NCBI GenBank assembly: GCA_964619725.1
Contig: CAZUFC010000006.1
Span: forward strand, 1-64,000
DNA length: 64,000 bases
Direction of reading: 5' to 3'
Source of the DNA: an uncultured bacterium
GTDB taxonomy: Bacteria; CSSED10-310; CAZUFC01
Made by a program: the position numbers and the translations under genes
Shown here: piece by piece, positions 17,001 through 47,345 of the stretch
Numbering within the stretch: position 1 is the stretch's first letter
Layout of the letters: every line of letters begins with the position of its first letter
Notes under the pieces: generated by a model
Told to the model about the DNA's origin: nothing
Databases searched by the model: none
The model's input: the letters and a program-made list of their open reading frames with translations, nothing else

Positions 17001-20000
17001 TCAAGGCCCGTACCCAAATTCAATCACATCATAAGCGCCTCTGATATCGTTCATTTCGTCGTTCAGCATGGCGCCCCAGAATTTCAGTCCCTGGATTTCG
17101 CTTTGGCCGGTATCGGGCCAGGTGAATTGGTTTAGAATGGTAATTTCGGCGGTTCCCGTTTCAACGACCACATTGTCGAAATCCATTTGCGGAGAGGGCG
17201 TCCATGTCGGCCAGAACCAGTATTGTTCGAATACGTCCAGGAATATGAACAGCGGGACGTCTTGCATGGTAGGACCCGGGTTTCCCAGCAATGCATTCAG
17301 GTAAAAGGTATCGCCGGGGCGATAGTAATCTGACGGCATTACCAGGTTTACGCCGAGCATAACGGTTGGAGTGGAAACGGGGAATCGGGTTGCAGCCGGC
17401 GTGGGACTGGGGGCAGCCGGAGGGGTTGACGTCGGGATGCCGGTCGGTGTGGGGACGCTTGTTCCTGTTGCTGTCGGCGTTTCGGTGGGAATTTCAGTGG
17501 GGGATGCTGTCGGCGAAAGAGTGGGACTCGGTGTGTATGACGGCGTATATGTTGGGCTGCCGATCTGCGTTACGGTTCGGGTCGGCGAATATGTCGGGGT
17601 GCGGCTGGGCGTGTTTGTCGGGCTCGGCGTCTCGGTTGCCGTACCGGTGGGAACTGATGTCGGTGAGTTCGTCGGCGTCAGAGTCGGCGTGTCGGACATT
17701 GTTGCGGTAGGGCTTTGGGTCGGGGTCCTGCTCGGGGTCGGCGTGGGCGTGTCCGTCATTGTTGCGGTTGGACTTAGAGTCGGCGTCCTGGTTGGGGTTT
17801 GTGTCGGGGTCCTGGTGGGCGTCAGAGTCGGCGTGTCTGTCATCGATGCTGTCGGGCTCAGGGTCGGCGTTCGAGTGGGCGTATTCGTCGGGCTGGGAGT
17901 CTCGGTTGCAGTATTGGTGGGAACTAATGTCGGCGAGTTCGTCGGCGTCAGAGTGGGCGTATCTGTTATCGATGCGGTTGGACTTTGGGTGGGCGTCCTG
18001 GTCGGCGTTTTTGTAGGTGATCTGGTGGGAGAGCTTGTCGGCATGGGAGAAAAAGTGGGCGTCCGGGTCGGTGTCCTGGTGGAAGTTCGGCTCGGCGTTT
18101 TCGTCGGCGTCCTGGTGGGAGAGATGGTCGGCGTGGGAGAAAACGTGGGGGTTCTGGTCGGCGTCCTGGTAGGAGAATGGGTGGCCGTCGGAGAACGGGT
18201 CGGCGTTCGCGTCGGCGTCTTTGTGGGAGTATCGGTTCCCGTCGGCGAATTCGTCGGCGTCCTGGTCGGCGTTTTGGTCACTTCGTAAAAAGTTTTTATC
18301 CGGAAACAATAATCGAAATCAGAACCTATATCCGAATCGCCCTCATATTCGGATTCGGTATTGCCTCTCCAGAAGAACCCGTTGTCCGGCGAATGAGTTC
18401 CCGTATGATAAACGACCAGCTTGTAACCCAGGCCGGGGGCCGTGTCGACGCCTTCGGGAATATCGAAGACATTCCAACCTCTAACGCAGTCTTCGGGGGC
18501 CCTGAGGGCGCTCCATATTACAGAACCCACCGGGTCCTTGATTTTGAGCGTCAGTGTGCCGTTGGGCGATCCGGATTTTCCAAGTTTTACCTGAACCTGG
18601 CATATGGAACTCCTGGTGAGGAAAAATTGTTGCCATCGACGCGCCGAGTTTTCGAAGTAGTAGCCGTAATTATGGTCGAGCACTTTTTCATCGATGTTAC
18701 AGATATAAACAGGCGTTTCGTTGGGGAGGGGAGTCGGCGTGCGCGTGGGCGTAGGGCTGACCGTTCGTGTTACAGGTATCGTTCCTGTAGGCATGACGGG
18801 CGGCGGATCAGAATTGTAATAGACGTCATTGGTGTCGTTGCGCCTGTCGGACCAGACGGCGTAGAGTCGATTCTGCGACGGATTATAGACCATACTGAGC
18901 GCATGGTAATGATAAGCCAGGTTGGATTCATCGTCGGATACCTGGACGGGAGAACTCCAGCCTGTTCCCGATAAGCCTTGCGTGTAAAACGCCTTGGTCA
19001 ATCCGGCAGCTCTGTAGACGCACCGGCATTTTGTGCCGTTGAGCCTGCCGTATGCATATTTAAAATTGTAACTGTCGTCAAGGCTCGCCATATCGAAGGT
19101 ATAAGCGTTGCTGTCTGTGCTGTAATAAGCTCCGATATTATATGTCGTATGAAAATAATCCGTCTCGAATACAATAAGGGTCTTGTTCGCGTGTGTGGAT
19201 AAATGGGGACGAACGTCGTCGCCCAGGGTCCACCAGTTGTGATTGTCCAGCGAGAATCCCGTCCGTTCGTAACATACGACGGCGATATCCCCTTCACTGA
19301 CGTTTTCAACCTGGCAGGCCACATTGAGAAAATCCGAAGTGAACTTACCCGAAGCATATCTGACGTCGAAATCAAATCCGCCCTGTTCAAACGAAAAGTA
19401 GTTCCCTTCCCAGGCAGCGCCTCCATTAATCGTCATCAGCGTCAGAAGAGAATAATGGCTGTCGCCCGTGTTGATGCTCGGATAGCTGACCGAAATTTCC
19501 AGATTAGTATCCACGCAGATGGAGGGGGCGCCGGAATAACCGTCCCGTGTGGGTGAGGGGAATATGGACCATCCCTGCGGCCAGAACTCAAATATATCAT
19601 CAGGTTCATCAGTTCGGACGTATGCGGCATAAGGCGTGTCGGCTATTACTATTGTAGCGGCGAGATAAATATAGCCGCCGGCATCAACGACGACTTCGGG
19701 ATGCATGAGTTCCGCTCCGGATGCATTGATTATCACCCCGTTCCAGGAGTATCCGTCGGCGGACTGGTATAGACAGATATAGCCGTTTTCAGCGCTGAAA
19801 GCCACATATGTGTATTCGTCAAAAACAGCGGTCGACGTTTTATACTCATCGACCGGGACAGGAGGCGAACCCGTCTCAACCCCTCCCAGCAAATAATCCG
19901 TCGGGTTGAAGTTGTTCGTATCCCGGGGATCGTTCTTGATCGTGAATTTTTCCGCTATCGAAACAGGAATATTGAAAACATTTACCGGAGAAATCCTTGT

Positions 20001-20132
20001 TACCGTTGATTCATCCGAATGCCTTTGTTCGAGCGCCGGATACTGCCCGTTGCCGATTGATTCCGAAGCATTTGCGTGACATGTTAAAACGACCATGAAA
20101 ATGAGCAAGGTTTTAATAAAGTTCCAGCGCAT
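17001..20132 (-). CDS. Large secreted protein: beta-rich N-terminal region, ~300-aa Pro/Thr repeat linker, conserved ~118-aa C-terminal domain
   Basis: Signal peptide; BNR-like SxDGxSW; TPTRTPT repeats at ~17371-18288; tail homologous to those of the 40415 and 42387 proteins. Confidence 0.8.
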
Positions 20133-20226
20133 TGTAATCTCTCCTTATGATATCCTTATTGCCCAAAAATGTTTTTTCTGGGTAGCGTGTGTGAAACATC
20201 CTGGTCTGAAAGGTTATGAGCAAAAG

Positions 20227-20257
20227 AAAACCGCGAATCCCGGGGATTCGCGGTTTT
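20227..20257 (-). terminator. Rho-independent terminator
   Basis: AAAACCGCGAATCC-CGG-GGATTCGCGGTTTT perfect stem, U-rich tail on the minus strand, just downstream of the 20285..22030 gene. Confidence 0.85.
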
Positions 20258-20284
20258 AATATTTATGGTTGCCGGAACGTTACA

Positions 20285-22030
20285 TCAGTTCCGTAATTTT
20301 TTTTCTTTCCTGGTTGCGGATAAAAGCAAGCTGCCCAATCCGATCAGCAGGATGAACACACCGGTAGTACGCAATGTCGGGACCTGGTCGGGTACCTCTG
20401 TAGGAGTGGCGAAAGGCGACAATGTTGCGGTCGCTCCATCGGTAGGCGTCATAGTCGGCGTAAATGTGGGCATAGGCGCGACTGTAAAGGTGTTCGTAGG
20501 CGTATTTGTCGGCGTGAAAGTCGGTATGGGAGCGATTGTGTTGGTTGCTGTAGCGGTTAAAGTCGGCGTAAATGTGGGTATGGGCGCCATGGTATTGGTG
20601 GGAGTCAAAGTGAATGTATGAATCGGCGTATTTGTCGGCGTGAAGGTGGGTATGGGAACGAAGGTGTTTGTCGGAGTGAAGGTGAACAGAGAGAATGTCG
20701 GCGTTCGCGAAGGAGTCCGTGTGGGAGTGAATGTATTGAGCGGTCCCATGGTATTGGTCGGGGTTCTTGTGGGCGTCCAGGTGTAGGCTGGTAAAGTGGG
20801 CGTTCTAGTTGGAGTATAGGAATGTATGGGCGTCGGCGTATCCGTTCCTGTGGGGGCTGTGCCGGTTATAGTCGGCGTGGGCGTGAATGTGCCTGTGGGA
20901 GTAGCTCCGGTGCCGGTCGGCGTGGCCGTAGGCGAGACGGTTTGGGTCGGCGTCGGTCCTGAAGGAGTGGGTGAAACGGTGCCTGTCGGCGTTGGTCCTG
21001 AAGGCGTTGCGGTGGGTGATGTCGTGCCTGTCGGCGTCGGTCCTGACGGCGTTGCTGTAGGCGATGTAGTACCAGTCGGCGTTGCTCCTGACGGTGTTGA
21101 AGTCGGAGTGGCCGTAGTAGTGGGTGTGGCTCCTGACGGAGTTGATGTCGGAGTGGCTGTTGTGGTCGGTGTGGCGCCTGTCGACGTTCCTGTCGGCGTA
21201 TTCGTGGCTGTTGTGGTCGGTGTGGCTCCTGTTGGAGTCGACGTCGGCGTTGCAGTCGTCGTTGGAGTTGTTCCAGTCGATGTTCCTGTCGGCGTGTTCG
21301 TGGCTGTTGTGGTCGGGGTGACTCCCGTCGGCGTAGAAGTCGGCGGGGACGTCCCAGTCGGCGTATTTCCTGTCGGCGTATTCGTCGGAGTTGCCGTAGT
21401 CGTCGGTCCTGTGCTCGTGCTGGTGGGCGTCCTGGTCGGCGTCGATGTGCTCGACGGCTGCGTGCTCGTGCTCGTCGGCGTCCTCGTCGGCGTCGATGTG
21501 CTCGACGGAGACGTGTTGGTCGGCGTCGGCGAAGGCGCGCTTCCCGTATCCCACCACGTCATATAGTTGGCGGAGGTGCTGCCCGAATAATAACGAATCT
21601 CCACATAATAATAGCCGGAATAATACGGCGTAAAAGTGCATTCCTCGTCCGCAGAACCACCGGCAAGGGAAGAACATAACAATGAATTATCATGACAGTC
21701 TCCGGTCCCTCCCCAGACATATAAATCAAGGTCTACGCCGTCGGGAACCTGGAGACCGACGGTTACCTGCTGCGTGCTCCCGTAAATGAAATACCACCAG
21801 TCTCTCGGATCGCCGGAATCGTATATCGATCCGAACACGCATACGCCTGTCGGAATCTCATTAGCATAATAACAGTCATCGTTCGGTTCCGGTTCAATGT
21901 CTTTCGATCCTCCGTCTGCCGGCAGCAAATTTTTGGGCATGCGGACTTTCTCTACCAGAGCCGAATCCGCTGCCGCAGCAGCAAGCAAGACTGATACGGC
22001 CAGAATGATCAAAATCGGATATCTTTTCAT
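20285..22030 (-). CDS. Secreted PPC-like domain protein with ~380-aa Thr/Pro stalk and IPTL-CTERM-like tail
   Basis: Signal peptide; EPEPND..DWWYF..DLDLYV..YYVEI (PPC-like); ends VPTL + hydrophobic helix + RKEKKLRN. Confidence 0.8.
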
Positions 22031-22311
22031 AAATCCCCTTCCTTCGATTGAATATTCAAAAGGTTACCCCCATAAATCGGTCTCTTCTTTTTGACTTTTT
22101 TTATTCAAATACGTTTTCCTAAGCTTCAAAAATCCTCAACAGATGCTTACGAGGAGATCACCAATTTTTTTAATAACTGAAAAAATGGCATCAAGTCAAG
22201 AAACGAAGAAACTTTTTTATTGAAATCTTTTTATTTTTATTCGAAAAATGATAGAGTAAGGGACGGCTAACGAAGTCGTTTCGACTAATTTCGAAAGGAA
22301 GACAATTATTC

Positions 22312-26070: not shown

Positions 26071-26080
26071 AGAATCAGAA

Positions 26081-29996: not shown

Positions 29997-30875
29997 TTGT
30001 TTTCAGAGGAGCTGCGATTGAAAGCGATCATTCGTACAATACTTTACGTCATTTCTTACCCGGTATTCTCCCGTTTGTTCGGTATGCTTGTCAGGATAAA
30101 GCATCCGAAGTTTCTGGTCGCTCAGGTTATCGACCTGTATCAGAAGAGTTTCAGGATCGACATGGATGAATTTGAAGGGGATGTTACCGATTACGATAGT
30201 CTTGCTGATTTTTTTGTAAGGAAACTGGATGAGAAAAAACGCCCGCTTGAGCCGAGGCCGGAGTTTTTCCTGTCGCCGGCGGACGGAATTCTGACGGAAT
30301 GGGAGCGGATAACCGGGGACCGGGCTGTGCAGGTCAAGGGAATCACCTATAAAATCAGCGAGCTGCTTGAAAGCGATATCGGATTCGATCAGGGATGGTA
30401 TGTGTTTACGGTTTATCTGTCTCCTGCCGATTATCACAGGTTTCATACTCCCGTGGATTGCGTTCTTGATGCCTGGCTGCATACCGGCGGTCGCCTCTAC
30501 CCGGTCAATTCCCTTTCTGTTACGACCGTCCAGGATTTGTTTGTGAAAAATGAACGGATAGTCTGTGCGATGTCTTACGAAAAAATGAAATTTTACTATG
30601 TAGCGGTGGGCGCTACTTTCGTAGGCGGCATAAAAATGGTTTTCATCGATAAAGACGTAAAACGGGAATGGGTGACGTCAAACCGTAAATTCAGTCAGAA
30701 TGATGAATTCGGCCGCTTCGACATGGGTTCCACGATTATTCTCGTCACGCCTGAAAAGATGGTGGAGTCCGTCACGGTCAAAAAAGGACAGAGAATCAAA
30801 ACAGGCGATCCTCTGTTTAAAATGAGAAGCGGACTTCAAAATTTGCCTGAGATGAAAGATAAAAATTCGCCGTGA
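29997..30875 (+). CDS. psd: Phosphatidylserine decarboxylase proenzyme
   Basis: FFVRKL, SPADG, QVKG..Y, YLSPADYHRFH, NER, VGAT.VG, F.MGST self-cleavage motif. Confidence 0.92.
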   Translation: MFSEELRLKAIIRTILYVISYPVFSRLFGMLVRIKHPKFLVAQVIDLYQKSFRIDMDEFEGDVTDYDSLADFFVRKLDEKKRPLEPRPEFFLSPADGILTEWERITGDRAVQVKGITYKISELLESDIGFDQGWYVFTVYLSPADYHRFHTPVDCVLDAWLHTGGRLYPVNSLSVTTVQDLFVKNERIVCAMSYEKMKFYYVAVGATFVGGIKMVFIDKDVKREWVTSNRKFSQNDEFGRFDMGSTIILVTPEKMVESVTVKKGQRIKTGDPLFKMRSGLQNLPEMKDKNSP

Positions 30876-30916
30876 CGGGAGCTTTGAACGAGACAAAATA
30901 TAACGACGTTTTTCAA

Positions 30917-32035
30917 ATGAAGCGCAACGGAAATAAATTTCGTTTGATTGATGTTTTTGCCGGTGCCGGCGGTATGACGTTGGGATTCTCCTCCCGATTC
31001 GGGCATGCCTTCGAACCGGTATGGGCGATTGATTTCGAAAGGCATTGCGTAGAAACATATAAAGCCAATTTTGGTGATCATTGCCTGTGCGGCGATATCG
31101 TCGACATTCTCAACGATCCGTCAATCGTCATACCGGGAGCCGATGCAGTAATCGGAGGGCCGCCCTGTCAGGGATTCAGTCTGTTGAACAAAAAAAGGGA
31201 CAAAGACCCCCGGAAGAGCCTCTGGCGACCTTTTTTAGAGCTTGTCGAAAGGTCCGGAGCAAAAGTGTTCGTGATGGAAAACGTTCCTCAACTGCTGGGT
31301 TCGCAAGAATATGACGATATAGTCGAAACGGCTGGAGAGATGGGTTTCAAAGTATGCGGTGAGGTATTATGCGCAGCGGATTACGGGGTGCCGCAGACTC
31401 GCCGCCGGGCTTTTATACTGGGGTGTAAGCATCTCGATCCCGGATTTGCATTTCCGCCGCCGAGGACGCATTTCAATCCTGGATATGACGGGAAACGAAC
31501 TATACCGGTTTTCGATGATGAAATATACGTACCTGATGCGGAAAGATGGCGAACCGTTCGGGATGCCATAGAGGACTTACCCGGCCCTGAAGGTACGTCC
31601 ATAAGGAAAATTCCGCCGCCGCTGGCTTTGCACTTCGGACGAAATCCTACTGAATTGAGCAAAAAACGATATCGTGCGATCCCGGAGGAGGGCATGAATC
31701 GTTTCGATTTGCAGCGGATCGCTCCTGAGCTGACCCCGGAATGCTGGATAAGAAAAAAAACAGGCGGTACCGATCTGTTTGGTAGGTTGTGGTGGGACCG
31801 TCCTGCATTTACGATTCGCACGGAATTCTTCAAACCGGAAAAAGGGCGCTATCTCCACCCGGAACAGCACCGACCGATAACTCATCGTGAAGCCGCCCGT
31901 CTGCAATCCTTCCCGGATGATTTTATTTTCAAAGGAACGAAGACGGAAATAGCCAGGCAAATAGGAAACGCCGTCCCGCCGCTTCTGGCAGCCCGCATAG
32001 CCGATTCGGTTTGCCGCCTTTTGAACTATGGGTAG
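30917..32035 (+). CDS. dcm: DNA (cytosine-5)-methyltransferase
   Basis: FAGAGG, GGPPCQGFS, ENV, YGVPQTRRR, REAARLQSFPD, QIGNAVPP. Start could be GTG 30872. Confidence 0.93.
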   Translation: MKRNGNKFRLIDVFAGAGGMTLGFSSRFGHAFEPVWAIDFERHCVETYKANFGDHCLCGDIVDILNDPSIVIPGADAVIGGPPCQGFSLLNKKRDKDPRKSLWRPFLELVERSGAKVFVMENVPQLLGSQEYDDIVETAGEMGFKVCGEVLCAADYGVPQTRRRAFILGCKHLDPGFAFPPPRTHFNPGYDGKRTIPVFDDEIYVPDAERWRTVRDAIEDLPGPEGTSIRKIPPPLALHFGRNPTELSKKRYRAIPEEGMNRFDLQRIAPELTPECWIRKKTGGTDLFGRLWWDRPAFTIRTEFFKPEKGRYLHPEQHRPITHREAARLQSFPDDFIFKGTKTEIARQIGNAVPPLLAARIADSVCRLLNYG

Positions 32036-33992: not shown

Positions 33993-36155
33993 ATGATCAG
34001 AAAAAGCATCATATTATTTCTCTTTTTGTTGTTGAGTAGACCTGTCGATGTTTTCGCGGAATACGTCATAACGTATATCCGGGATGGGGCATTGTGGGTG
34101 CGGGGCGGAACGGGGGATTCGGTTCGTGTTGTGTGGCAGGATTATTATGGCGGAGACCGCAGCGTAAATTACATATATTTTCAGGGGCCAGACGGCAGCG
34201 TATTGGACAGGATATTCCTGGATTACAATGATCCCGGCGGTGAGGTGATTTACGATTTGAATGAGGGTTTTGGGGATTACCGGATCGAATTTCCAGGATA
34301 TTTTTACAGAATAGCGCAGGTGACGGCTCAAGGGGCTGCTCAGCTTGTTTTCGAGCCGGCATGCGGTCACAGAGCCTATCATCCTAACGGCGTTCCCCTG
34401 TATTTCAACGTTCCGTCGGGATTATTATCTTTTACATTGTGCGGCAAATACAATATCGGCACGACCGGGATCAGGCTTTACCGTCCTGACGGCGAGTATT
34501 ACGACACGTTGATGCTTGTCGATGATCCGGCGACGCTGTATTTCGACAGGATGGAAGTGAATGATCCGGAGGCTGGAACCTGGCGGATTGAATTTGAAGG
34601 CGACGGAAAAGTCGGGTTCTGGCTTGACGGAGCGCCGAATTATTTTGCGCCGGCGGCGGAAAGTTTGTTTGAGCCTGAACCGTCGCCGGGAACCGCGGTT
34701 TTTGAGGGCGAAGGAGAAACCGGAGAAATGGGACTAATCGGAGCGTCTCTCGTCAACCTCGGTTATCCCGATGAAATATTTGAGAACATCGAGTATATGG
34801 GCCTGGAAACATTTAACTACTACAACAACATATACTGGCGAGAACCTTACAATCCCTCATTTCCTTTCGGCGGAGACAATGATGATCCGCATCTGTTCGA
34901 CTGGTCCTGGTATGTCTGGGACGATGCACGCATTTCCTGGTACCGGGAGGACCTGGGAGCGCAGATCAGCAGCCTGTTCGATGCGAAAGAGAGTTGGCTG
35001 GGCCCGCCGTTAGAGTCCTGGCAGCAGGAGGAATTCGCAGAGTTTGCGCTGGCTTATCTCATTCACGCCAATGCAGACCAGCAATATGGGATGAAATGGT
35101 TTTCTCCCTGGGACGAACCCAATCTCAGCGTTTTCACTTATGAAGAATATGAAGCGCTCTTGTTGGAAATGGCCGGAAGAATCAAAGACCCGGCGAATCC
35201 TCCTGAAGTGATTAATACTCCATTAATGGCCGTCAGCAGTTCGGGATGGGAAAATTGCAATACCGGTCCGGAAAGGATAGGACGGCTCTGGGCGGAAAAC
35301 CTCTATTTCAATTATGATCACCTGGTGGACGGCATAGCCTTCGATCACTGGGAGTTTCGCGACCTGATCGAATCCTGGCGTTTCGGCAATTCCGTGAACA
35401 TCGCGGCTGACATCATCAGAGCCAACGACACGGACGGCGACGCGGACGAAGAAATCGTCATCAATCAAACCAGCATGAGTTCCGGGAGCGGCTCCAGCGC
35501 CTATGACGTAAATTCTCATTTCAGCGCTTTATGGCTTACGGGTGCGATCTGCAGTGCCTTCAGCAAAGCAGAACTGGATGCATTTCATTATTTCACGACC
35601 GTAGACGACAACCGGCATATGAAAGGTCTGATGTATTCAGAGAATCCGCCTGAACCCCTGCCCTATCGACCGCAGGCCCAACCTTACCAGTTGAAACCCA
35701 TGGGGCATGCCATGGCCATGATAAATGAAGCAGTTCTAGATGAAATACTCATTACGGAATCGGATTCAGTGGAAGTCAATGCCCTGCTTACGACCGATGA
35801 AACAAATACTTCCGCCGCGCTCATAGCCGTCAACAAATTTCCGCGTATCAATCTGCTCATTCTCGACGCTGTATTACCAGCGGAAATGAAGAACAAATGT
35901 TATAAGGTTACCGGAGAATGCCTGGGGCCTCAGGATGAATCCCCCGAACCTCTGCAGGATTCATTGGCAATCTGCGCTGACGATACGCTCCATTTTGAAT
36001 ATGAACTCAATCCGGAAACAGTTTACGCGTTCAGGTTTTCAATTTTTACGCCAGAATTGCCGGCAATGCGAAAAGAAGCGGCCATTCCGGTCATTATATG
36101 TTTTTCCATTGGAATAAGGACGTTCTGTCGGCGGCGAAAGACGATCAAGCCATAA
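33993..36155 (+). CDS. Secreted clan GH-A (GH39-like) TIM-barrel protein with possible IPTL-CTERM-like tail
   Basis: Signal peptide; FSPWDEPN resembles the WNEP acid/base motif; DGIAFDHW; ends LPAM + hydrophobic stretch + RRRK. Confidence 0.55.
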   Translation: MIRKSIILFLFLLLSRPVDVFAEYVITYIRDGALWVRGGTGDSVRVVWQDYYGGDRSVNYIYFQGPDGSVLDRIFLDYNDPGGEVIYDLNEGFGDYRIEFPGYFYRIAQVTAQGAAQLVFEPACGHRAYHPNGVPLYFNVPSGLLSFTLCGKYNIGTTGIRLYRPDGEYYDTLMLVDDPATLYFDRMEVNDPEAGTWRIEFEGDGKVGFWLDGAPNYFAPAAESLFEPEPSPGTAVFEGEGETGEMGLIGASLVNLGYPDEIFENIEYMGLETFNYYNNIYWREPYNPSFPFGGDNDDPHLFDWSWYVWDDARISWYREDLGAQISSLFDAKESWLGPPLESWQQEEFAEFALAYLIHANADQQYGMKWFSPWDEPNLSVFTYEEYEALLLEMAGRIKDPANPPEVINTPLMAVSSSGWENCNTGPERIGRLWAENLYFNYDHLVDGIAFDHWEFRDLIESWRFGNSVNIAADIIRANDTDGDADEEIVINQTSMSSGSGSSAYDVNSHFSALWLTGAICSAFSKAELDAFHYFTTVDDNRHMKGLMYSENPPEPLPYRPQAQPYQLKPMGHAMAMINEAVLDEILITESDSVEVNALLTTDETNTSAALIAVNKFPRINLLILDAVLPAEMKNKCYKVTGECLGPQDESPEPLQDSLAICADDTLHFEYELNPETVYAFRFSIFTPELPAMRKEAAIPVIICFSIGIRTFCRRRKTIKP

Positions 36156-36483: not shown

Positions 36484-38766
36484 ATGAAACGATCTATTTT
36501 ATTTATCTGTGCGGCAGCAGCGCTGGCCTTTATTTCTGATGTGAGGGGCGCCGTGCCTCGTCAGATAAGTTATCAGGGTCATTTAACCGATTCGGTGAGC
36601 GGCGAGCCTCTGGACGGAACGTTCAATTTTCATTTTTCATTGTATGATGCGGATATCGGCGGGACGCTGTTGTGGAGTGAGACGCAGCCTGATGTCGATG
36701 TCGATCAGGGCGTATTTCATGTTATTTTAGGCGCTTCCGTGCCGTTTCCTTCGGAATTGCATTTTGACGAGACGTATTGGCTTGAGATAGGCATAGACGA
36801 CGGCGCGAATCCCGTGGAAATTTTAGAGCCGAGGCAACAACTGACCAGCGCGGGTCAGGCTTTGGAAGCTGCCGACGTTTATGACCAGGATATTCATCCG
36901 CGAAGCCTGGGTATAACGGGATATGAAAAAGGTATGGTAATAAATGAATACGGCGAATGGACAGGACCGCCGACAGGATTGACGGGTCCTACCGGTCCTG
37001 CAGGTCCGCAAGGCGATACAGGTCTCATAGGTCCTCAAGGATACACGGGACCCATCGGCCCGCAGGGGCAAACCGGTCCGACAGGTCCCCAGGGCGATAC
37101 AGGTGCAGCGGGAGCTGATGGCGAAACTGGTCCTGTCGGTCCGCAAGGGGATACAGGATTCATCGGTCCCCAAGGGTTCACTGGTCCTGCCGGTCCTCAA
37201 GGCGACACGGGTTACGTCGGCCCCCAGGGCGAAACCGGTCCCACCGGCCCTCAAGGTCAAACCGGTCCCGCCGGTCCTCAGGGCGATACCGGACCGACAG
37301 GCGCCGTCGGCGACACTGGCCCTGTCGGTCCACGAGGGGACACGGGGCAAACAGGCCCTCATGGCGAAACCGGCCCCACCGGCCCTCAAGGTCAAACCGG
37401 TCCCGTCGGTCCTCAAGGCGACACGGGGCCTGTCGGCGGTAATGACGGGCAGTTAATTTATAACGACGCCGGCAACGCCGCCGGAGCCGAAATATACTAC
37501 GACAAGACGACCGGATATGTGGGAGTGGGAACGACTAATCCTCTTGAGCTTTTGCATGTTGGCGGTTCGATAGAGGCTGCCGGGCGTCTGACTTTATTGG
37601 AAGGCGGTTTCAGCAATCCGTCCGTCCGTTTCGTCGATGCAACCGACGGCACAGGCGGAGTCGTCGGAATGAGCGATTCGGATAATGCGCTTCGACTGGA
37701 AGGGGGCAGCGACACGACGAACGGGGCCTGGATCAGTCTTTACGGATCGGAAGTCGTCACTCCTGCAGATATGGCGGGCGGCATACTTTTCAACGGAACG
37801 GAAGAAGACAGTAAATTTGTTTTCCGGATGAACGGCGATACGGACGATTACCTTCAATTTTCAGTCGAGAGCGGATTGCCGCACATCAGGGCGATCGGAC
37901 TGGGGACCTCATCATCGCACCGTTTGACTTTCGGATTTGATGTTCACGAAGCCTTCATGGGTTTGAGACCGACTTCAACCGACGGCATCCAGCTTAGATT
38001 AGGGACTGCAGAGGACGGCATAACCGGCGGCAGCTCCTGTGCCTTAATGCTGTGGGCGCACGGCGACGAAAGTACGACCCGACCAGGAGAAGTGGATATC
38101 TACGGCAGCGGCGTTCCGGTAAACATCATCGCAAACGGCGATCAGAGCGATTATTTCCAGTTCAGGCAGGACAGTGAAGGATTGCCCAGCATAAAGGTGC
38201 ATTCTCACACCAGCGCAGAACAAATGTCGATTGAATCCGTCAGCGGAAGCATGTACCTGAAATTAAAATCCGCCGCGCCGACAGGATTCGCTTCCATTTC
38301 ATTCTGGGACGGCGACGGCAATACCTCAAGCATAGGACAGAATTCTGTCGATTCAATGTATGTTAACTCTTTCAGCAATATAATAATCAAAACAAACGGC
38401 GGAACCGACCGCTGGCTGTTTGAGACCGACGGAGATTTTATCCCTTATCTGAACAGGGAATACGACATAGGATCGTCTGGTGCGCGCGTCGACAATATAT
38501 ATTGCGATGAAATATACGCCAATACCTGCTGCGATTATGTTTTCGATGACGATTACGAACTGAGGAGCCTGGCGGAAGTGAAAGAACACATCCTGTCGAA
38601 TGGAAGACTACCGGAAATCGACGATGATGTGTCGATAAACGATTTGCTGAAAAAGGTTGAAGAACTGACTCTTTATACTTTGCAGCAGAGTGAGAAAATA
38701 GATGAACTGGTACGGGACAGGGATGAATTGAGGTTGCGGATTAGAGAGCTTGAAAGACGGATGTGA
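36484..38766 (+). CDS. Secreted collagen-like / fibre-like trimeric protein
   Basis: Signal peptide; [10 protein letters not shown]...LWSE N-domain; 51 uninterrupted G-X-Y triplets (36976-37434); [11 protein letters not shown]-terminal DYVF..Y.L..L...[11 protein letters not shown] coiled-coil/chaperone-like tail. Confidence 0.85.
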
Positions 38767-38804
38767 AAAGCCGTTCAGGGATGACGACATAATTAATCTT
38801 TAAT

Positions 38805-39661: not shown

Positions 39662-39752
39662 AGTTATTCAAGTTCAGGCGGTGATAAAAATATCCGGTTA
39701 TTTGAAAACAAAGACAGAGAATTATCAACCACGGATTCAATTCACCCATTTC

Positions 39753-40239: not shown

Positions 40240-40414
40240 ATCTCCTGATATCGACTGACAAAAAATTGTGATATGAAATTGAAATCCCCGTCACACTTTG
40301 TTGTTTTTATCATCTTAGACAATTGAAGGTTGCTTTACTCGTTGATGGCGATAAAAAGAATTTTTCTCTTTTTTATCCCCTTGATATCATGTAAAAAAGG
40401 AGAGGAGGTTAGTG

Positions 40415-42157
40415 ATGAAAAATTTTTTGAGAGAAAGAATAATGATTAAACATTTTTGGTTAGTGATGTTTCCGCTATCCTTGTCGATCGTTTTATTGTC
40501 TCCATCCGGCGAGTCTGAGATTATACGTATCCCTTTTGATTATCCTACAATTCAAGAGGGGATCAATGCTTCTGAAGAAGGCGATACTGTTCTTATCACC
40601 GAGGGTATATATACAGGACAGGGAAACAGGGATATCACTTTTAATGGGAAAGCCATTAAAGTAACTTCAGAAAGTGGAGCAGAAAAAACTATAATTGAAC
40701 CGAATGGAAATGAACAAGAGCCTTATTGTGGGTTCATTTTCAATAACGGGGAAAATGAAAACTCGGTACTTGATGGATTTACAATTAGAAAAGGGGCCAG
40801 ATTCGGAAATCCGGGAGGTGGGGGAATTGAAATCAACAGCTCTTCACCAAGCATAGAAAATTGCATAATCGAAAACAATAAAGGAGGCGGCATCGGTGTC
40901 TGCTCTCAGGGTTCCGTCAACGCGTCTCCGTTAATTGCCAATTGTCAAATATCAGGTAATGATGATTGGGGAGGCATGGCTGGAGGAATAGCTTGTTGTG
41001 CCAGTACTGCACCCTATATTGTAGATTGTACAATTAGCGACAATTCTGGTTCCGGGTTGCATTGTTATAATTCGTATTCTTCTCCAACCATAGTAAATAC
41101 TAGAATAATGTGTAATTCTGCAAACAAAGGAGCTGGAATACATGCAATCGTCCATACTTTTCCCACAATAAGTAACTGTTTGATCATATCGAACAGTGCC
41201 GCATACGCAGGAGGAGGAATATATTTTGAACACCCTCTGGGTCCCTCTGTTAAAATTGAAAACTGTACTATTTCAGAAAACAGCGCCGATTATGGAGGGG
41301 GCATTTATTGTCTTGAATGTGAAAATTCCATTGAAATTTTAAACAGTATCCTTTGGGATAATAGCGCGGATCACGGGTCTGAAATTTATATGGATCGATT
41401 GGATATCATAAGCATCAGCTACAGCGATGTATACGGCGGACAACAAAATATTCATATTTGCGACAATTGCACCCTTCAGTGGGGATCAGGCATGATCAAC
41501 CAAGACCCTCTATTTTCATCAGGATACTGGGGAAGCCATTATCTAAGTCATATTGCCGCTGGTCAGTTAATGGACAGTCCTTGTATCGATACTGGCAGTG
41601 AACTGGCAAAGGATATTTTTTACTTGAGTTTGAATGAAACAATTTACATGGATGAAATGACAACCAGAAGGGATCATGTCGAAGACAGCGGCTTCGTCGA
41701 TATAGGATATCATTGTTCGATAAACATTCCAACACGGTCCCCTACACCAACTGGGACTTGGTTTTCTCCCACTCAAACGCCTACATTTCCTTGTATTTCC
41801 ACAGGAATAAAGCTGGAAATGCCGTCTCACACATTTAAAACAGGCGACTTATGTTATCTTTGGATGTTTGTCTGCAACTTAAATGGCGATCCAATGACAC
41901 AATATCCTTTATTCTTAATCCTTGATGTATATGGCGATTACTGGTTCGCTCCTTCATGGAAATCTAACCAGGAGGGTTTTGATTATTATATTTCAAACTG
42001 GCCGGAAGGACTCACGGAATTCGTCGTAATTGATGCCTTCGTCTGGCCCGGAGATATTGGCGAAGCTTCCGGAATAACATTCCATGCCGCCTTCACAGAT
42101 CCACAAATGACAAGGATTTTGGGAGAAACGGATTCGTGGACTTTCGGATGGGAGTAG
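40415..42157 (+). CDS. Secreted right-handed beta-helix repeat protein with the conserved C-terminal domain
   Basis: DYPTIQEGI..GDTV, repeated GGGI / NC.I..N motifs, short PT linker, tail shared with the 17001 and 42387 proteins; visibly more AT-rich than its neighbours. Confidence 0.85.
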   Translation: MKNFLRERIMIKHFWLVMFPLSLSIVLLSPSGESEIIRIPFDYPTIQEGINASEEGDTVLITEGIYTGQGNRDITFNGKAIKVTSESGAEKTIIEPNGNEQEPYCGFIFNNGENENSVLDGFTIRKGARFGNPGGGGIEINSSSPSIENCIIENNKGGGIGVCSQGSVNASPLIANCQISGNDDWGGMAGGIACCASTAPYIVDCTISDNSGSGLHCYNSYSSPTIVNTRIMCNSANKGAGIHAIVHTFPTISNCLIISNSAAYAGGGIYFEHPLGPSVKIENCTISENSADYGGGIYCLECENSIEILNSILWDNSADHGSEIYMDRLDIISISYSDVYGGQQNIHICDNCTLQWGSGMINQDPLFSSGYWGSHYLSHIAAGQLMDSPCIDTGSELAKDIFYLSLNETIYMDEMTTRRDHVEDSGFVDIGYHCSINIPTRSPTPTGTWFSPTQTPTFPCISTGIKLEMPSHTFKTGDLCYLWMFVCNLNGDPMTQYPLFLILDVYGDYWFAPSWKSNQEGFDYYISNWPEGLTEFVVIDAFVWPGDIGEASGITFHAAFTDPQMTRILGETDSWTFGWE

Positions 42158-42164
42158 CTGGTTT

Positions 42165-42211
42165 AACTCAAAAGCAATTGAATATATGGTCATCGGAGGA
42201 TATGCCGTTGG
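42165..42211 (+). repeat. 47-bp direct copy of an internal segment of the nucleotidyltransferase gene (39242-39288)
   Basis: AACTCAAAAGcAATTGAATATaTGGTCATCGGAGGATATGCCGTtGG, 44/47 identical. Confidence 0.85.
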
Positions 42212-42386
42212 TTTGCTGCTTGACGGTCGCTGGGGAGTATGATCGGGTCCCATTTTTTGACTTCCAGATGGTGAGGTAATAAAAAGGAAATGTTTCCGGT
42301 TGCGCGGCGGGAAGAGTAGAAGCGGACGCGTGACGGGAAAATGAGCGCTGATAGTTGATCATTAAATACTGCGGAAAGGGTAACAG

Positions 42387-45300
42387 ATGAAAATATCACG
42401 GAATTGTTCTGCGATTTTTGTATTTTTGATTATATTATTTTTTTCAGTGGTTTCGGGAGAGTTTTCGACATCGGCTGCCGGCTGGTTTTCGTTTGCTGAT
42501 GCGGATGAATCTTCTTCGATTGAGGTTAAAAACCTGAATATGGGGCCCGACGGCCTGGAATTTGAGATCGAATTTCCCGGCATGTTTTTTCAGGAGGTTC
42601 AGATCAGGAATCGACGGTTCGTTGAGGTTGATATGCCGGGAGCGGGACGTTGCGGGGAGACGGGACATCCATCTTTGCCTGCTTTCAGGCGTTTTATTCA
42701 TATACCTTTTTGCGAGGGTTTTTCGATTGAAACGGAAATACTGGAGAAGGGAACCGTGACTTTGGCTCAAGTCGGTTACGGTCTGGAAATATCTCCTGTG
42801 CAGCCGCCGCTGGATAAAATACCCGGAGCCTATGAATCAATGAGGGTGGAGTATGATGAAAGCGCTTATCGCAGGGATGGTTACAGTCCTGAAATTTCGG
42901 CTTCGGTCGGTTATCCCGGCATGGCCAGGGGGCATCGGACGGTTCTGTTGGAAGCTTTTCCCGTGTCTTACAATGCTGTTGAAAGGGCTGTCGAATACTG
43001 TTCCGGAATGCGGATAAAAATAACTTTCCAGAATGCGGACATAATGAGGACGAAGAAATGCCTGAAGCGGTACCGGAATGTGTTGTTCGACCGGCTGGTA
43101 TCGAGTTTTTTAATCAACCCGGAGTTTATGTATTTTTTGACTGATTATCCGCCGCTTCCGCCGCCCTCCTTTTTAATTATCGTTCACGACGAATTTGAAT
43201 CGGCCGTTTATCCTTTCGCTCAGGTGAAGCAAAGCCTGGGTTATGACGTTTCTATAGCGAATACGAGTGAAACGGGCGATACGGCTTCAGAAATAAAAGA
43301 GTATATTTCAGAAGCCTATGATACCTGGCCCAATCCTCCGGTTTATGTCTTGCTGGTAGGGGATACGGATTACATACCGGCGTGGTGGGGAAGCCACAGT
43401 TATTCAGAAACGGATATCGATTATTCATTGCTTCAGGACGGCGATTATCTTCCTGACGTAGCGTTGGGTCGATGGCCTGTCAATAGCCTGTTGCAGACGG
43501 CGATCATAGTGGAAAAGACGCTGGCGTATGAATTGGCGGAAATGGAGGAGGATTCGTTTTACGGTCAGGGCGTCTTTATTGCCTCATCCGATGCCGGGGG
43601 AATGGCGGAGGATACGCATAACTGGGTGATCAGCAATTACCTGGAGCCTGACGGTCATATGGCTCACAGGGTCTGGGAATCCCAGGGCGGCAATACGAGC
43701 GACGTCATCGAGAATTTGAACGAGGGGCGCGGGTGGTGCGTTTATTCGGGGCATGGATCGCCGTCCGGATGGTTATGCGTTTACTTTCAGAAAGGCCATA
43801 TCAAAAACGACCTGACGAATTACGAAAAGTATCCGCTGGTGAGTTCTCACGCTTGTTCGACAAACACCTATGAGGATGCGGAATGTTTCGGGGAAACCTG
43901 GCTGGTGGAGGAGGAGACGGGCGGCATAGCGTTCTGGGGAGCATCGGCTACGACTCAATGGGACGAGGATGATATAATCGAGAAGGGGCAGTTCAGGGGA
44001 TTAGTGGAGGATAAAATATATGCGTATTCCATGACGACGGATTACGGCAAGTATGATCTTGTGTTGGAGTATGGCTGGTCAGGCAGCGTCTATGATTATT
44101 ATGAGAAGTATGTGGTGCACGGTGATCCTTCAATCGACCCGTTTACGGATGTGCCGGAGGAATTGACGGTGGTTCATGATCCGACGGCTCCGGTAGGCGA
44201 GTATGATTACGAGGTATATGTAGAAGGAGCGGGAGGAGCTGTGGAAGGGGCATTGGTGAATTTGATGCTGGATGAGGTAGCATTGGCGACAGGTTACACG
44301 GATTCGTCGGGCAGCGTCGCTTTAACGATATATCCGCAAGCAGCCGGCGAGATGTCGGTCAACGTATCGGCTCATAATGCAGCGCCGTATTTTGGGATAT
44401 GCATGGTTACGCCGCAGGGTTGCGGATTCATTGATTTGGACCGCGAAATATACGCATGCGGTATGGAAGCGGAAATAGCCGCCTGGGACACTGACCTTAA
44501 TAGTGATCCGGGAGTCGTCGATACGGCGGAGGTTTTTCTTTGGAGCGACTCGGAGCCTGACCCGGAGACGCTGACGATAACGGAGACGGGGAACGATACG
44601 AATGAATTCCGGGGAACCATACTGCTGTCAGGCAGTCAGGGCGGACCGGGATATTTGCTTGTTTCTCACGGCGATACGGTAACCCTGAATTATTACGATG
44701 AAGATTGCGAGGGTGAGCCTGCGGACGTATATGATTATGCGGTCATGGATTGTGCCGGTCCGGTTATAACGGGAATATCTTCGAGTGAAATAACGGATGA
44801 TGGAGCGTTGATAAGCTGGATCACGGATGAACTATCTGACAGCATTGTTGATTATGGCCCGACCTTGCCGCCGGAAAGGAGCGTTTCCGATTCGAGTATG
44901 ACGACGGAACACAGCATGAGGTTAAGCGCACTGGAGTGTTGCGAGGAATATTATTTCCGTGTGACTTCGACCGATTCGCTGGGCAATACGACGATAGACG
45001 ACAATGGAGGCGATTATTACGTTTTTTCTACTTTGGGGCGCTTTTTGGTGATGAACGCTGAGATGAACAGCGATCCGGTATGGGCCATTTCCGGAGGCGA
45101 TTGGGAATACGGCATACCGTTGGGGGAAGGGGGTTTCGCCGGTTCTCCCGACCCTGAATCGGGGCATACGGGCGATCACGTCTACGGTTACAACCTGGAA
45201 GGCGATTACGACAACAGCGTGCCGGCATATCATCTGACGACGCTGCCGGTCGATTGTTCTGCAGCAGGCGCAACGATCCTGAGTTTCTACAGGTGGCTGG

Positions 45301-47345
45301 GAGCTTCTTATTCCGACCAGGCCCTGTTGTCGGCATCAAACGACGGAGAAAATTGGGATGAATACTATCGCAGCAGTTCTTACATCTCTGATGATGAATG
45401 GGTAGAATGCACGTACGATATCTCGGAAACGGCCAACGGACATTCCGAAGTATATGTTCGTTGGACGATGGGACCGACCACACAGAGCGTAACATCGTGC
45501 GGATGGAATATCGACGACGTGCAAATTTCTATGCTGGCGTCCTGCAACGCGCCGGTTCTGGGCTATGTCGAGCACGGCATTGACGATTCTTTCGGAAACG
45601 GCGACAGTGAACCGAATCCCGGCGAGATAATCGAATCATGTATAACGCTTCACAACCATTCTGCAACAACGGCGACGGGGCTCCAGGCATTCGTTACTGA
45701 AGATGGAGATGCGATTACGGTCCTCAACGGAGATATCGTTTTTCCGGATATTCCACCTGAAAGCGAGGGAATTTCGATTCCGCCCGGTTTGATCATACAG
45801 ATCAGTCCGCAGGCGCAGGATGGAGACGTCGTCAGATTCGACATGGAATGGACGTCGGCCGAGACGTCTGGAACGGTTTATTTCTCCGAAAGGGTTGTGG
45901 CTCCTGTAATTGAATTCAGGGATTTCACCATAGACGATTCAGCAGGAAACAATGATCTTAAAATAGACCCTGGTGAATTCATCCGCCTGCCCGTTCTGTT
46001 GAAAAACGCCGGCCATGGAACCGCTGCAGTAATAACCGGCTTATTGAGCTCAGATTCTGCTTATATAGAGATAAACGACGAGACCGCCTCCTGGGAAAGT
46101 ATGGAGTCGCAGGAAGCTTGTTGGAGTTCGGAACATTTCGGCTTTACTGTCGATGATGCAGCGCCCATCGGCGAAATCGTTACTTTTCGTCTGGACATAG
46201 AGACGCAATATTTTTCCGGCATTTTTTATTTTAAAACTCACATCGGAGCGCGTCCGGTCCTGGTTATTGATGATGATGCAGGTCCGTTCGCTGAATTGTT
46301 CGTTTCAATTCTGACCGATGCAGGATTCGCTGTTTCGCTGCAGACTGCCGCAGAAACTCAGGCGTCGGAATGGCCGGATTATTTGTTCATCGTCTGGAGC
46401 GCCGGGGCCTGCATTAATCCTTTGATTGAAGATGAGTGGAGAGAGAATCTGGTAAATTACGTCAATGAAGGCGGCCGATTGCTGATCGAAGGGGGTGAAA
46501 TATGCCGCGACTTCGAATACGGAGATTGGGATTTTCTTTACACGGTATGTCATGTTGACGACTGGAATGCGAACAGTTCAGGAAATCTTCATCTAAACGA
46601 ACCCGGTCACCCTCTGGCCAATTCACCTTATGTCTTGCCTTCAGAAATTCAACATAACGACCTTAACGCGGGGGATGAGGATGCGTGCGAGGTCGCAGAC
46701 GGAGCCGATCTGATTTACCGGTGGACTGCCGAACCGGGCGGAGGCGTAATTGCATACGACGATGACGACGATGCTGAAAATGGCGGACAGACAGTCTTTT
46801 ACTCCTTTACCCTGGGCCGAATCCCCAATGCGGACGTCAGGGCAAGATTGTTGAAAAATACGGCAGGATGGCTACTGGGCATTCCCGACGCACCCTTCAC
46901 GCCTACTCCGGACCCGACGACAACGCCGACCGGCATGCCCACCTGTATTCCGACGCCGACTACCGTCCCTACTTCACTTCCCACGATATCCCCCACGCCT
47001 TCCAGCGTCATTTTCAAACTTATCCTGAACAAAAACAGATTCCGTGCCGGCGATGATTTTATTCTGGACAGACGATTGAGTAATCCCGGCGAGTCCTTGG
47101 CGGCCTATGAATTCATTATTCTCGACATTTACGGAGAATACTGGTTTTACGATGACTGGACGCGGCAAATCGACTGGCTTGATATCCTGGTCCCAGCTCG
47201 CTCGGATCAGACGAAAAATATACTGTCCTTCATTTGGCCGGATGCCGCCGGTTCCAGTCAGGGCTTGAAATTCTGGGGAGCATTGCTCGACGATCAATCC
47301 AACCTGATCAGCAATATCGATTCGTTTGAATGGAGTTTTGAGTAA
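42387..47345 (+). CDS. Gingipain-like peptidase C25 with propeptide, Ig/FN3 domains, PT linker and the conserved C-terminal domain
   Basis: Propeptide G.P.LP; YVLLVGD..IP, D..Y..D..PD..GR; catalytic YSGHG and HAC; F.E.W, GD.S; tail shared with two other proteins. Confidence 0.88.
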   Translation: MKISRNCSAIFVFLIILFFSVVSGEFSTSAAGWFSFADADESSSIEVKNLNMGPDGLEFEIEFPGMFFQEVQIRNRRFVEVDMPGAGRCGETGHPSLPAFRRFIHIPFCEGFSIETEILEKGTVTLAQVGYGLEISPVQPPLDKIPGAYESMRVEYDESAYRRDGYSPEISASVGYPGMARGHRTVLLEAFPVSYNAVERAVEYCSGMRIKITFQNADIMRTKKCLKRYRNVLFDRLVSSFLINPEFMYFLTDYPPLPPPSFLIIVHDEFESAVYPFAQVKQSLGYDVSIANTSETGDTASEIKEYISEAYDTWPNPPVYVLLVGDTDYIPAWWGSHSYSETDIDYSLLQDGDYLPDVALGRWPVNSLLQTAIIVEKTLAYELAEMEEDSFYGQGVFIASSDAGGMAEDTHNWVISNYLEPDGHMAHRVWESQGGNTSDVIENLNEGRGWCVYSGHGSPSGWLCVYFQKGHIKNDLTNYEKYPLVSSHACSTNTYEDAECFGETWLVEEETGGIAFWGASATTQWDEDDIIEKGQFRGLVEDKIYAYSMTTDYGKYDLVLEYGWSGSVYDYYEKYVVHGDPSIDPFTDVPEELTVVHDPTAPVGEYDYEVYVEGAGGAVEGALVNLMLDEVALATGYTDSSGSVALTIYPQAAGEMSVNVSAHNAAPYFGICMVTPQGCGFIDLDREIYACGMEAEIAAWDTDLNSDPGVVDTAEVFLWSDSEPDPETLTITETGNDTNEFRGTILLSGSQGGPGYLLVSHGDTVTLNYYDEDCEGEPADVYDYAVMDCAGPVITGISSSEITDDGALISWITDELSDSIVDYGPTLPPERSVSDSSMTTEHSMRLSALECCEEYYFRVTSTDSLGNTTIDDNGGDYYVFSTLGRFLVMNAEMNSDPVWAISGGDWEYGIPLGEGGFAGSPDPESGHTGDHVYGYNLEGDYDNSVPAYHLTTLPVDCSAAGATILSFYRWLGASYSDQALLSASNDGENWDEYYRSSSYISDDEWVECTYDISETANGHSEVYVRWTMGPTTQSVTSCGWNIDDVQISMLASCNAPVLGYVEHGIDDSFGNGDSEPNPGEIIESCITLHNHSATTATGLQAFVTEDGDAITVLNGDIVFPDIPPESEGISIPPGLIIQISPQAQDGDVVRFDMEWTSAETSGTVYFSERVVAPVIEFRDFTIDDSAGNNDLKIDPGEFIRLPVLLKNAGHGTAAVITGLLSSDSAYIEINDETASWESMESQEACWSSEHFGFTVDDAAPIGEIVTFRLDIETQYFSGIFYFKTHIGARPVLVIDDDAGPFAELFVSILTDAGFAVSLQTAAETQASEWPDYLFIVWSAGACINPLIEDEWRENLVNYVNEGGRLLIEGGEICRDFEYGDWDFLYTVCHVDDWNANSSGNLHLNEPGHPLANSPYVLPSEIQHNDLNAGDEDACEVADGADLIYRWTAEPGGGVIAYDDDDDAENGGQTVFYSFTLGRIPNADVRARLLKNTAGWLLGIPDAPFTPTPDPTTTPTGMPTCIPTPTTVPTSLPTISPTPSSVIFKLILNKNRFRAGDDFILDRRLSNPGESLAAYEFIILDIYGEYWFYDDWTRQIDWLDILVPARSDQTKNILSFIWPDAAGSSQGLKFWGALLDDQSNLISNIDSFEWSFE

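Follow-up and report, generated by a model that had tools for sequence, protein, structure and literature searches.

A window of 64,000 nucleotides, positions 1 to 64,000 of contig CAZUFC010000006.1 in GenBank assembly GCA_964619725.1 from an uncultured bacterium of the rare phylum CSSED10-310, encodes three proteins (P0001, P0002, and P0003) that begin like secreted proteins, differ in their bodies, and end in a common tail of about 115 residues. Here, we show that this tail belongs to a large family with a predicted all-beta fold, that it lies almost always at the extreme C-terminus, that it is restricted to one clade in which the type IX secretion system (T9SS) was not found, and that it trades places with a second kind of C-terminal tag on paralogous cargo, with rare copies away from the C-terminus. 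We read the tail as a putative, position-tolerant docking or retention module at the surface of the cell that produces it, a reading to which we give about an even chance.

When the three proteins are aligned over their C-terminal ~125 residues, 25 columns are invariant and identity to the first sequence is 37%, and the core boundaries from hidden Markov model (HMM) alignment lie within a few residues of those proposed in a first-pass annotation of this DNA, which had noticed the likeness of the tails. The bodies had been described there as unrelated, and Pfam agrees: P0001 has no family on its body, P0002 matches Beta_helix (E 6.4e-18), and P0003 matches Peptidase_C25 (E 2.8e-55) together with Propeptide_C25. 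Weak matches of P0003 to PorU-related NCBIfam models, at 36 bits against a cut-off of 450 bits, appear only to reflect the common C25 fold. Each protein opens with a signal-peptide-like N-terminus, read by eye as hydrophobic without a predictor, and reaches its tail through a Pro/Thr linker (of 299, 18, and 33 residues in P0001, P0002, and P0003), an architecture that had likewise been claimed. The linker of P0001 is unusually long and consists of degenerate TPT/SPT repeats between body and tail; the strong positive GC skew over 17364-18260 arises because it is coded on the minus strand.

The window is part of contig C6 of an assembly (G000) of 9.17 Mb in 344 contigs, estimated to be 90.9% complete and 6.5% contaminated, in which every stop-to-stop frame of at least 80 residues was translated to give 29,275 open reading frames (ORFs). 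Because a profile of the three window tails matches 217 ORFs in this genome, their likeness is not due to chance. Iterating the profile with 198 hits raises the yield to 224 domains in 223 ORFs. These ORFs have a median length of 710 residues and are spread over 123 of the 344 contigs, and 54 of the ORFs have another tail ORF no more than 1 kb away. The domain ends within 5 residues of the ORF end in 208 of the 224 cases, within 15 in 214, and farther away in 10. By a crude hydrophobicity rule, a signal-peptide-like start is present in 158 of 209 tail ORFs (those of at least 200 residues with an upstream stop) versus 937 of 2859 controls (other ORFs, no shorter than 350 residues), and the rule undercounts the tail set, several of the misses having obvious signal peptides by eye. 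The 40 residues ahead of the domain have a median Pro+Thr+Ser fraction of 0.45, compared with 0.198 in the bodies, and the fraction reaches 0.4 in 131 of 214. Among 28 proteins of this genome, surveyed over the C-terminal 635 residues at most, the cargo comprises beta-helix/PMP repeats, S8, C11, C25, transglutaminase, GH123, Kelch, BNR/sortilin, and CarboxypepD_reg domains, to which database relatives add the C1, M1, FG-GAP/VCBS, and FGE-sulfatase types. A few short ORFs of 137-181 residues hold a tail with neither signal peptide nor body (C27:23003-23545 and C171:5618-6109, both on the plus strand, and minus-strand frames on C91 and C23); these are probably frameshifted or fragmented genes.

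Conservation over the 198 tails is concentrated at P91 (0.99), L52 (0.97), W90 (0.93), F88 (0.93), N39 (0.92), W64 (0.89), and F102 (0.86), which upholds the consensus first drawn from three sequences, and positions 58-61, 64, 122, and 124 are almost always aromatic. Since adjacent strand residues face opposite sides, some of the aromatics at 58-61 and 64 are presumably exposed, and in the predicted fold they may resemble binding platforms. AlphaFold2, given an alignment of 31 tails with the P0003 copy as target, returns a confident model (predicted local distance difference test [pLDDT] 94.1, predicted template modeling score [pTM] 0.81) with eight strands and no helix; the earlier statement that the tail has no transmembrane helix accords with this all-beta model. 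Foldseek against the PDB gives weak matches (E ~1e-4, template modeling score [TM] ~0.5) to RhoGDI, NPC2/ML domains, a porphyran-binding carbohydrate-binding module (CBM; 8wae), CARDB, RbmA, and accessory domains of GH3 enzymes, and the Wzt carbohydrate-binding domain (6o14) is also among the fold neighbours. In an exhaustive VIA-align search, the best match comes from a GH66 dextranase, through a domain close to its N-terminus (Z 10.2, root-mean-square deviation [rmsd] 3.0, 101 residues aligned), under which lies a plateau at Z 8-9.5 of Spo0M, RbmA, Ig-like domains of GH2 enzymes, transglutaminase barrels, and CARDB. On the strength of the model, the tail is best described as a generic Ig-like (E-set-type) beta sandwich, a fold that implies no function.

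Sequence searches connect the tail with no named family, as the first-pass annotation had supposed. The three window tails match nothing in Pfam or NCBIfam at E ≤ 1, T9SS C-terminal domains (CTDs) included, and at E ≤ 10 the 31 tails match five Pfam families through a single member each, with no CTD, CARDB, PPC, or dockerin family among them; no match to a carbohydrate-binding or FlgD-type family, which the first-pass annotation had named as a refutation, was found. A profile search of PDB sequences yielded no credible match, the best hit, LRP2, being judged spurious at E 0.003. The ESM Atlas returned unnamed clusters only, and a single-sequence word search returned only the query itself, relatives being found by profile search alone. 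Literature searches on the phylum, C-terminal sorting signals, secretins, and cohesins or dockerins, judged mainly by their listings, produced no description of the domain, nor is it mentioned in the available part of the main text of a report on the phylum (PMC8248873). What is new is the tail family and its fold-level identity; the idea of a common terminal address module on secreted proteins is known already.

The family is confined to one lineage. Across 41 genomes (our own, 13 others of the same phylum, and 27 of other phyla), the tail occurs in 11 of the 14 phylum genomes, from families f1, f4, f6, and f7, where scored copies number from 57 to more than 150 per genome, and the profile matches none of the 27 genomes outside the phylum. 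It also has no match in three genomes of the same phylum, G001, G002, and G004, which are 96, 87, and 93% complete; identity of DXS to our genome is 55-56% for tail-free G001 versus 52-56% for the tail-bearing families, which makes G001 no more distant than these in a comparison based on a single marker and no tree. Among 1.84 billion cluster representatives, 2458 proteins match the profile at E ≤ 1e-3, 2120 at E ≤ 1e-10, and 264 at E ≤ 1e-30, several of the relatives being labelled 'candidate division CSSED10-310 bacterium' by their sources. In 187 database proteins taken from the top of this ranking, not as a random sample, the domain ends within 5 residues of the C-terminus in 179 and within 15 in 182. 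The many, nearly all terminal hits in a restricted clade (214 of 224 terminal in our genome; 11 of 14 genomes in the phylum versus 0 of 27 outside it) are the pattern that the first-pass annotation had named as support for its proposal. Cells of the phylum are predicted, in a published description, to be Gram-negative and probably motile heterotrophs (PMC8248873), and the window itself encodes a set of TolC-like OEP, HlyD, and AcrB proteins, which fits a diderm cell.

The position held by the tail is shared with a second and larger class of C-terminal tags, which the first-pass annotation overlooked even though three examples lie in the window itself (Table 1). In our genome, 326 ORFs of at least 200 residues end in a transmembrane helix followed by basic residues, and 159 of these have a preceding motif of the type [IVL]P[AST][LFM][SG], with the consensus P-P-P-I-P-A-L-S-x-x-G; the linker ahead of this anchor signal has a median Pro+Thr+Ser fraction of 0.575. 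Only one of eight termini tested passes the cut-off of TIGR04174 (IPTL-CTERM), and one passes the generic LPXTG_anchor model; judged by these profiles, the signal is IPTL-CTERM-like and not a member of that family. The 27-position IPTL-CTERM model is too weak to show by six-frame search whether its distribution complements that of the tail (1-2 matches in 5 of 14 genomes), and a single weak match to the exosortase family (35.5 bits) was found in our genome. The S-layer protein of a diderm is reported to have a predicted IPTL-CTERM domain (PMC8671808), suggesting that such signals can accompany surface proteins.

Tail and anchor signal are found on the same cargo. Comparison of 198 tail proteins, with bodies of more than 150 residues, against the 159 anchor-signal proteins gave a body paralogue (E ≤ 1e-10) for 91, and for 66 of these the match is strong (E ≤ 1e-30 over at least 200 aligned residues), with identities up to 61-68% over 836-958 residues and the highest, 68%, over 836. 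The homology stops no more than 60 residues from the tail in 48 of 71 strong pairs (median 6), which points to an exchange of tags at the module boundary. No ORF of this genome truly carries both tags; the one flagged contains a false tail hit (independent E-value 0.02). The C25 peptidase of the window, P0003, is 38.5% identical over 833 residues to a paralogue with the anchor signal, and of 14 ORFs found with its C25 domain, 8 bear the tail and 3 the anchor signal. Among eight C25 ORFs of tail-free G001, four clearly end in a VPTLS-like motif, a hydrophobic helix, and a K/R cluster, one probably does, and one runs off its contig. Very long proteins favor the anchor signal: of the 56 ORFs that reach 2000 residues, 31 have it and 1 has the tail. 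The largest, a protein of 12,092 residues with the anchor signal (C34:1691-37966), combines Laminin_G_3, FG-GAP, CARDB, CarboxypepD_reg, and Wzt_C domains with a terminal cohesin, and another ORF of 8,482 residues is almost wholly beta-helix/NosD repeats. 'Choice-of-anchor' is a naming term of NCBIfam, and by that logic the tail would stand in the place of an address or anchor signal.

A minority of copies stand elsewhere. The ten domains of our genome that do not end near the ORF end comprise two short fragments, one weak false hit, two that are followed by ~31 residues, and five that are truly elsewhere. Of these five, a TIG/FGE-sulfatase protein has its copy (E 1.5e-41) immediately behind the signal peptide, a 5'-nucleotidase-like protein also has its copy behind the signal peptide, and the others lie between two FGE-sulfatase domains, after a neprosin domain, and ahead of a second tail in a single ORF. 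The database protein P0027 likewise has the tail ahead of an FGE-sulfatase, and in 5 of the 187 database proteins no copy comes as close as 15 residues to the C-terminus. Varied positions are tolerated by binding modules, for example dockerins, SLH domains, and CBMs. A signal that is read at the C-terminus should not work from an N-terminal or internal place, and docking modules would. The frequent internal or N-terminal occurrence that had been named as a refutation is not what we see, at ~5 of 224 domains here and 5 of 187 database proteins.

We propose that the tail works as follows. The cargo would be exported by Sec through its N-terminal signal peptide and would cross the outer membrane by some further route, for which secretins are available. 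The tail, on its flexible Pro/Thr linker, would then dock, without a covalent bond, onto some abundant glycan or receptor protein of the envelope or surface. Proteases, propellers, adhesin-like beta-helix proteins, and other cargo would in this way be retained by the cell, and the tail would be the lineage's alternative to the motif/transmembrane/basic anchor signal on paralogous cargo. Many types of cargo are adhesin-like themselves, which would be hard to understand unless the tail kept them on the cell that makes them. We infer the export route, the passage across the outer membrane, the binding and its ligand, and the location of the tail proteins, and several points weigh against the scheme. 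Non-terminal copies are few, and the 96% of copies at the extreme C-terminus would also fit a secretion signal; the exchange of tags establishes equivalence of position, not of mechanism; and the neighbours of the fold are generic, with a best Z of 10.2 and many at 8-9. No partner or ligand of the tail was identified in our searches. The signal-peptide rule is crude and permissive, 33% of controls passing it, and the location outside the outer membrane is assumed, so that the tail proteins could be periplasmic. Of the first-pass proposal of a lineage-specific export or surface-docking signal, what stands is that signal-peptide proteins with varied cargo and Pro/Thr linkers end in a domain that has no name and is restricted to one lineage; an export signal with a new translocon is not established, given the strong N-terminal and internal copies.

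The alternative that survives best is that the tail is a C-terminal export signal, comparable to a T9SS CTD, that would be recognized in the periplasm by a dedicated and undescribed outer-membrane route and possibly removed and replaced by an anchor; we regard it as possible but doubtful. Nearly all copies sit at the extreme C-terminus, the number per genome (57 to more than 150) resembles that of CTDs in CTD-rich control genomes (64 to more than 100), and the predicted fold is a beta sandwich, as CTDs are. The T9SS itself was not found, and another route would hence be needed. In six-frame searches with TIGR04183, the CTD model, there were 0 matches in our genome and in 12 of the 14 phylum genomes, and the same search found CTDs in 13 of the 27 outgroup genomes, with a maximum of more than 100 in one genome, which served as a positive control. 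Two fragmented genomes of the phylum do have matches, 10 in G013 (69% complete, 3% contamination) and 1 in G012 (78%, 5%), which may represent contamination or a real minority system. Searches for SprA_N (PF14349) and PorV (NF033710) gave 0 matches in G000, G003, and G007, both being found in the control genomes G017 and G040; the absence of sprA was one of the checks called for by the first-pass annotation. The tail shows no detectable homology to the CTDs of these controls, which speaks against this alternative: hhalign of the 31 tails with 20 CTDs gives a probability of 1.9% over 8 aligned columns. By sequence and profile, then, the tail is not a T9SS CTD, as had been claimed from its motifs. 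On the side of structure, no CTD is named among the Foldseek and VIA-align matches listed for the eight-strand model, but these lists are dominated by generic sandwiches.

The search for a protein that reads the tail bears on the same alternative. C25 peptidases of the gingipain/PorU family are much expanded, with 26 matches in our genome and 8-16 in the other ten tail-bearing genomes, an expansion that would suit this alternative. They do not track the tail, however: all 14 phylum genomes have them, including tail-free G001 (15 matches), G002 (2), and G004 (1), and on this phyletic pattern a C25 peptidase was rejected as a tail-specific sortase. Cohesins and dockerins are also found in all 14 genomes (31 and 11 matches in G000; 21-55 dockerin matches in family f6 and one each in G003, G008, G007, and G001), and since their counts do not follow the tail, cohesin number was rejected as a mark of its receptor. 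The count of secretins, 2-7 in all 14 genomes with 7 in our own, does not discriminate either. One secretin with a C-terminal cohesin on a putatively disordered tether (Table 1) roughly follows the distribution of the tail and is clade-restricted. Its cohesin scores 21.8 bits in hmmscan, under the cut-off of 24.1, and 25.6 bits in a six-frame search. Residues ~709-845, folded from four orthologues, form a sandwich whose listed Foldseek matches are all cohesins or cohesin-like (E ~1e-7, TM on target 0.6-0.75), in a model that is poor overall (pLDDT 65) and falls below 50 in the ~75-residue segment ahead of the cohesin. Full-length orthologues of 32-37% identity are present in G003, G005, G006, G009, G010, G012 (cut by a contig end), and G013, and that of G008 is split over two contigs; none was found in tail-bearing G007 (86% complete) or G011 (60%), and tail-free G001, G002, and G004 match the secretin core only, at 22-26% identity. 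The protein thus occurs in 9 of 11 tail-bearing versus 0 of 3 tail-free genomes of the phylum, and its operon, consisting of an ECF sigma factor, an anti-sigma factor, a TPR protein, and the secretin (from L072:7050), is kept in the four genomes compared. As a rough calibration, three arbitrary proteins of unknown function were followed in G001, G002, G004, G006, and G013; none gave a clean pattern and two are present in tail-free G001. The genomes in this co-distribution are kin and not independent, and the control proteins number only three. The secretin-cohesin may be a reader of the tail, a weak lead drawn from phyletic pattern, and its cohesin may simply bind true dockerins. That the tail is the address label of an undescribed secretin-based display route, in which this secretin or some other envelope receptor would capture proteins and pass them through or pin them at the outer membrane, is a long shot; if true, such a route would take over the function of the T9SS in a phylum without that system. 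An export signal read at the C-terminus is hard to square with the strong copies that stand right behind a signal peptide or inside a protein, and no translocon was identified.

Alternatively, the tail could resemble a CBM in directing its cargo to an environmental polymer and not to the producer's own cell, which we consider unlikely. Pro/Thr linkers and tolerance of position are typical of CBMs, and the tail has both, together with conserved runs of aromatics and fold neighbours that include the porphyran-binding CBM, the Wzt carbohydrate-binding domain, and accessory domains of glycoside hydrolases. Against this, the cargo consists mostly of peptidases, beta-helix/PMP-like proteins, propellers, and FG-GAP proteins and not of glycoside hydrolases, one uniform domain is found on 223 proteins of every kind, the tail swaps with membrane-anchor signals, and it has no sequence match to any CBM family, 8wae and 6o14 being neighbours at the level of fold only. 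An intramolecular folding or stability domain, or a PPC-like C-terminal propeptide without address function, might be entertained for a small, C-terminal beta domain on many peptidases, but is very improbable for one that is parted from its cargo by flexible linkers of up to 299 residues, occurs on non-enzymes as well, is exchanged with anchor signals, and has no match to the PPC domain (PF04151) in Pfam.

The features of the window discussed above, and the secretin-cohesin from elsewhere in the genome, are collected in Table 1. The window genes around the tail proteins serve housekeeping, restriction-modification, and efflux, and no candidate machinery for the tail was found among these neighbours. 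Two glycosyltransferases of the PMT_2/PMT type (3257-4987 and 7047-8648) are interleaved with two GDSL lipase/acylhydrolase proteins (5054-6877 and 10052-11338), all on the plus strand; the former are candidate enzymes for glycosylation of the Ser/Thr-rich linkers. A signal-peptide protein of 760 residues (36484-38766, plus strand) contains collagen triple-helix repeats (E 5e-23) and a coiled-coil-like C-terminus. Defence-type genes encode a nucleotidyltransferase of the AbiEii toxin family (13329-14261, minus strand), a C-5 cytosine methylase (30872-32035, plus strand), and a BglII-type endonuclease adjoining an MT-A70 methylase (61009-62245, minus strand).

Table 1. Tail proteins and anchor-signal ORFs of the window, with the secretin-cohesin of the same genome (window positions unless a contig or locus is given).
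Feature	Position	Strand	Description	Basis
P0001 gene	17001..20132	(-)	1043 aa; signal peptide, body without Pfam family, 299-residue Pro/Thr linker, tail	
P0001 tail domain	17004..17363	(-)	residues 924-1043	HMM alignment
P0001 Pro/Thr/Ser-rich linker	17364..18260	(-)	residues 625-923	sequence and HMM alignment
P0001 signal-peptide-like N-terminus	20064..20132	(-)	~residues 1-23	read by eye
P0002 gene	40412..42157	(+)	581 aa; signal peptide, right-handed beta-helix body, short Pro/Thr linker, tail	
P0002 Pro/Thr linker	41741..41794	(+)	residues 444-461 (18 residues)	HMM alignment
P0002 tail domain	41795..42154	(+)	residues 462-581	HMM alignment
P0003 gene	42387..47345	(+)	1652 aa; signal peptide, C25 propeptide and peptidase, further beta domains, Pro/Thr linker, tail	
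P0003 Pro/Thr linker	46905..47003	(+)	residues 1507-1539 (33 residues)	HMM alignment
P0003 tail domain	47004..47342	(+)	residues 1540-1652; copy chosen for folding	HMM alignment
Anchor-signal ORF	20285-22030	(-)	motif/transmembrane/basic	
Anchor-signal ORF	33993-36155	(+)	motif/transmembrane/basic	
Anchor-signal ORF	51232-52392	(-)	motif/transmembrane/basic	
Secretin with cohesin	G000:C12:72043-74577 (L072:10044-12578)		845 aa; TPR repeats, Secretin_N, Secretin, C-terminal cohesin	

Sorting machinery has been discovered time and again through a conserved domain at the end of secreted proteins; the T9SS, sortases, and exosortases are cases in point. The tail marks about one ORF per 41 kb in a 9.2-Mb genome and 2458 protein clusters at 50% identity worldwide, and it does so in a diderm lineage where the T9SS was not found. 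Naming the domain would annotate the secretome of a whole uncultured phylum and give a handle on its reader, and the swap of tags on near-identical cargo offers a natural experiment on the reasons for displaying one enzyme in two different ways.

Among known systems, the tail calls to mind the type A CTD of the T9SS (TIGR04183/PF18962), as found on gingipains: both stand at the end of varied signal-peptide cargo that includes C25 peptidases, both occur in dozens to hundreds of copies per genome, and both are small, restricted to clades, and, going by the model of the tail, all-beta sandwiches. The tail is longer, however, at ~115 residues versus the 72 positions of the TIGR04183 model, and has no sequence or profile similarity to it; its motifs are N-x-G, LDVYG-YWF-P-W, and F-W-P, in place of the PNP and G-Y-Y motifs of the control CTD alignment, a few of its copies are N-terminal or internal, and the T9SS core genes were not found in the SprA_N and PorV searches. 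With CARDB (PF07705) and other E-set Ig-like domains the tail shares a fold class and an N-x-G turn after the second long strand (Z 8.3, rmsd 3.1, and 102 residues aligned for the CARDB structure 3idu), but none of 31 tails matches the CARDB HMM at E ≤ 10 and many unrelated sandwiches score equally well or better. The tripartite sorting signals of the IPTL-CTERM (TIGR04174), PEP-CTERM, and LPXTG class are ~30-residue elements of motif, transmembrane helix, and basic residues, whereas the tail is a folded, soluble domain without a transmembrane helix; the two nevertheless occupy the same place on paralogous cargo after a similar Pro/Thr linker, and the tail therefore probably also decides the destination of the exported protein. 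Dockerins, ~60-residue calcium-binding helical modules, differ in turn from the all-beta, eight-strand sandwich modeled for the tail, which has no Pfam match. In their use, the dockerin/cohesin systems (PF00404/PF00963) are similar to the tail in being mostly C-terminal, tethered by linkers, and present on many secreted proteins with other positions tolerated, and we propose that the tail would share with them a non-covalent docking to a surface-anchored receptor.

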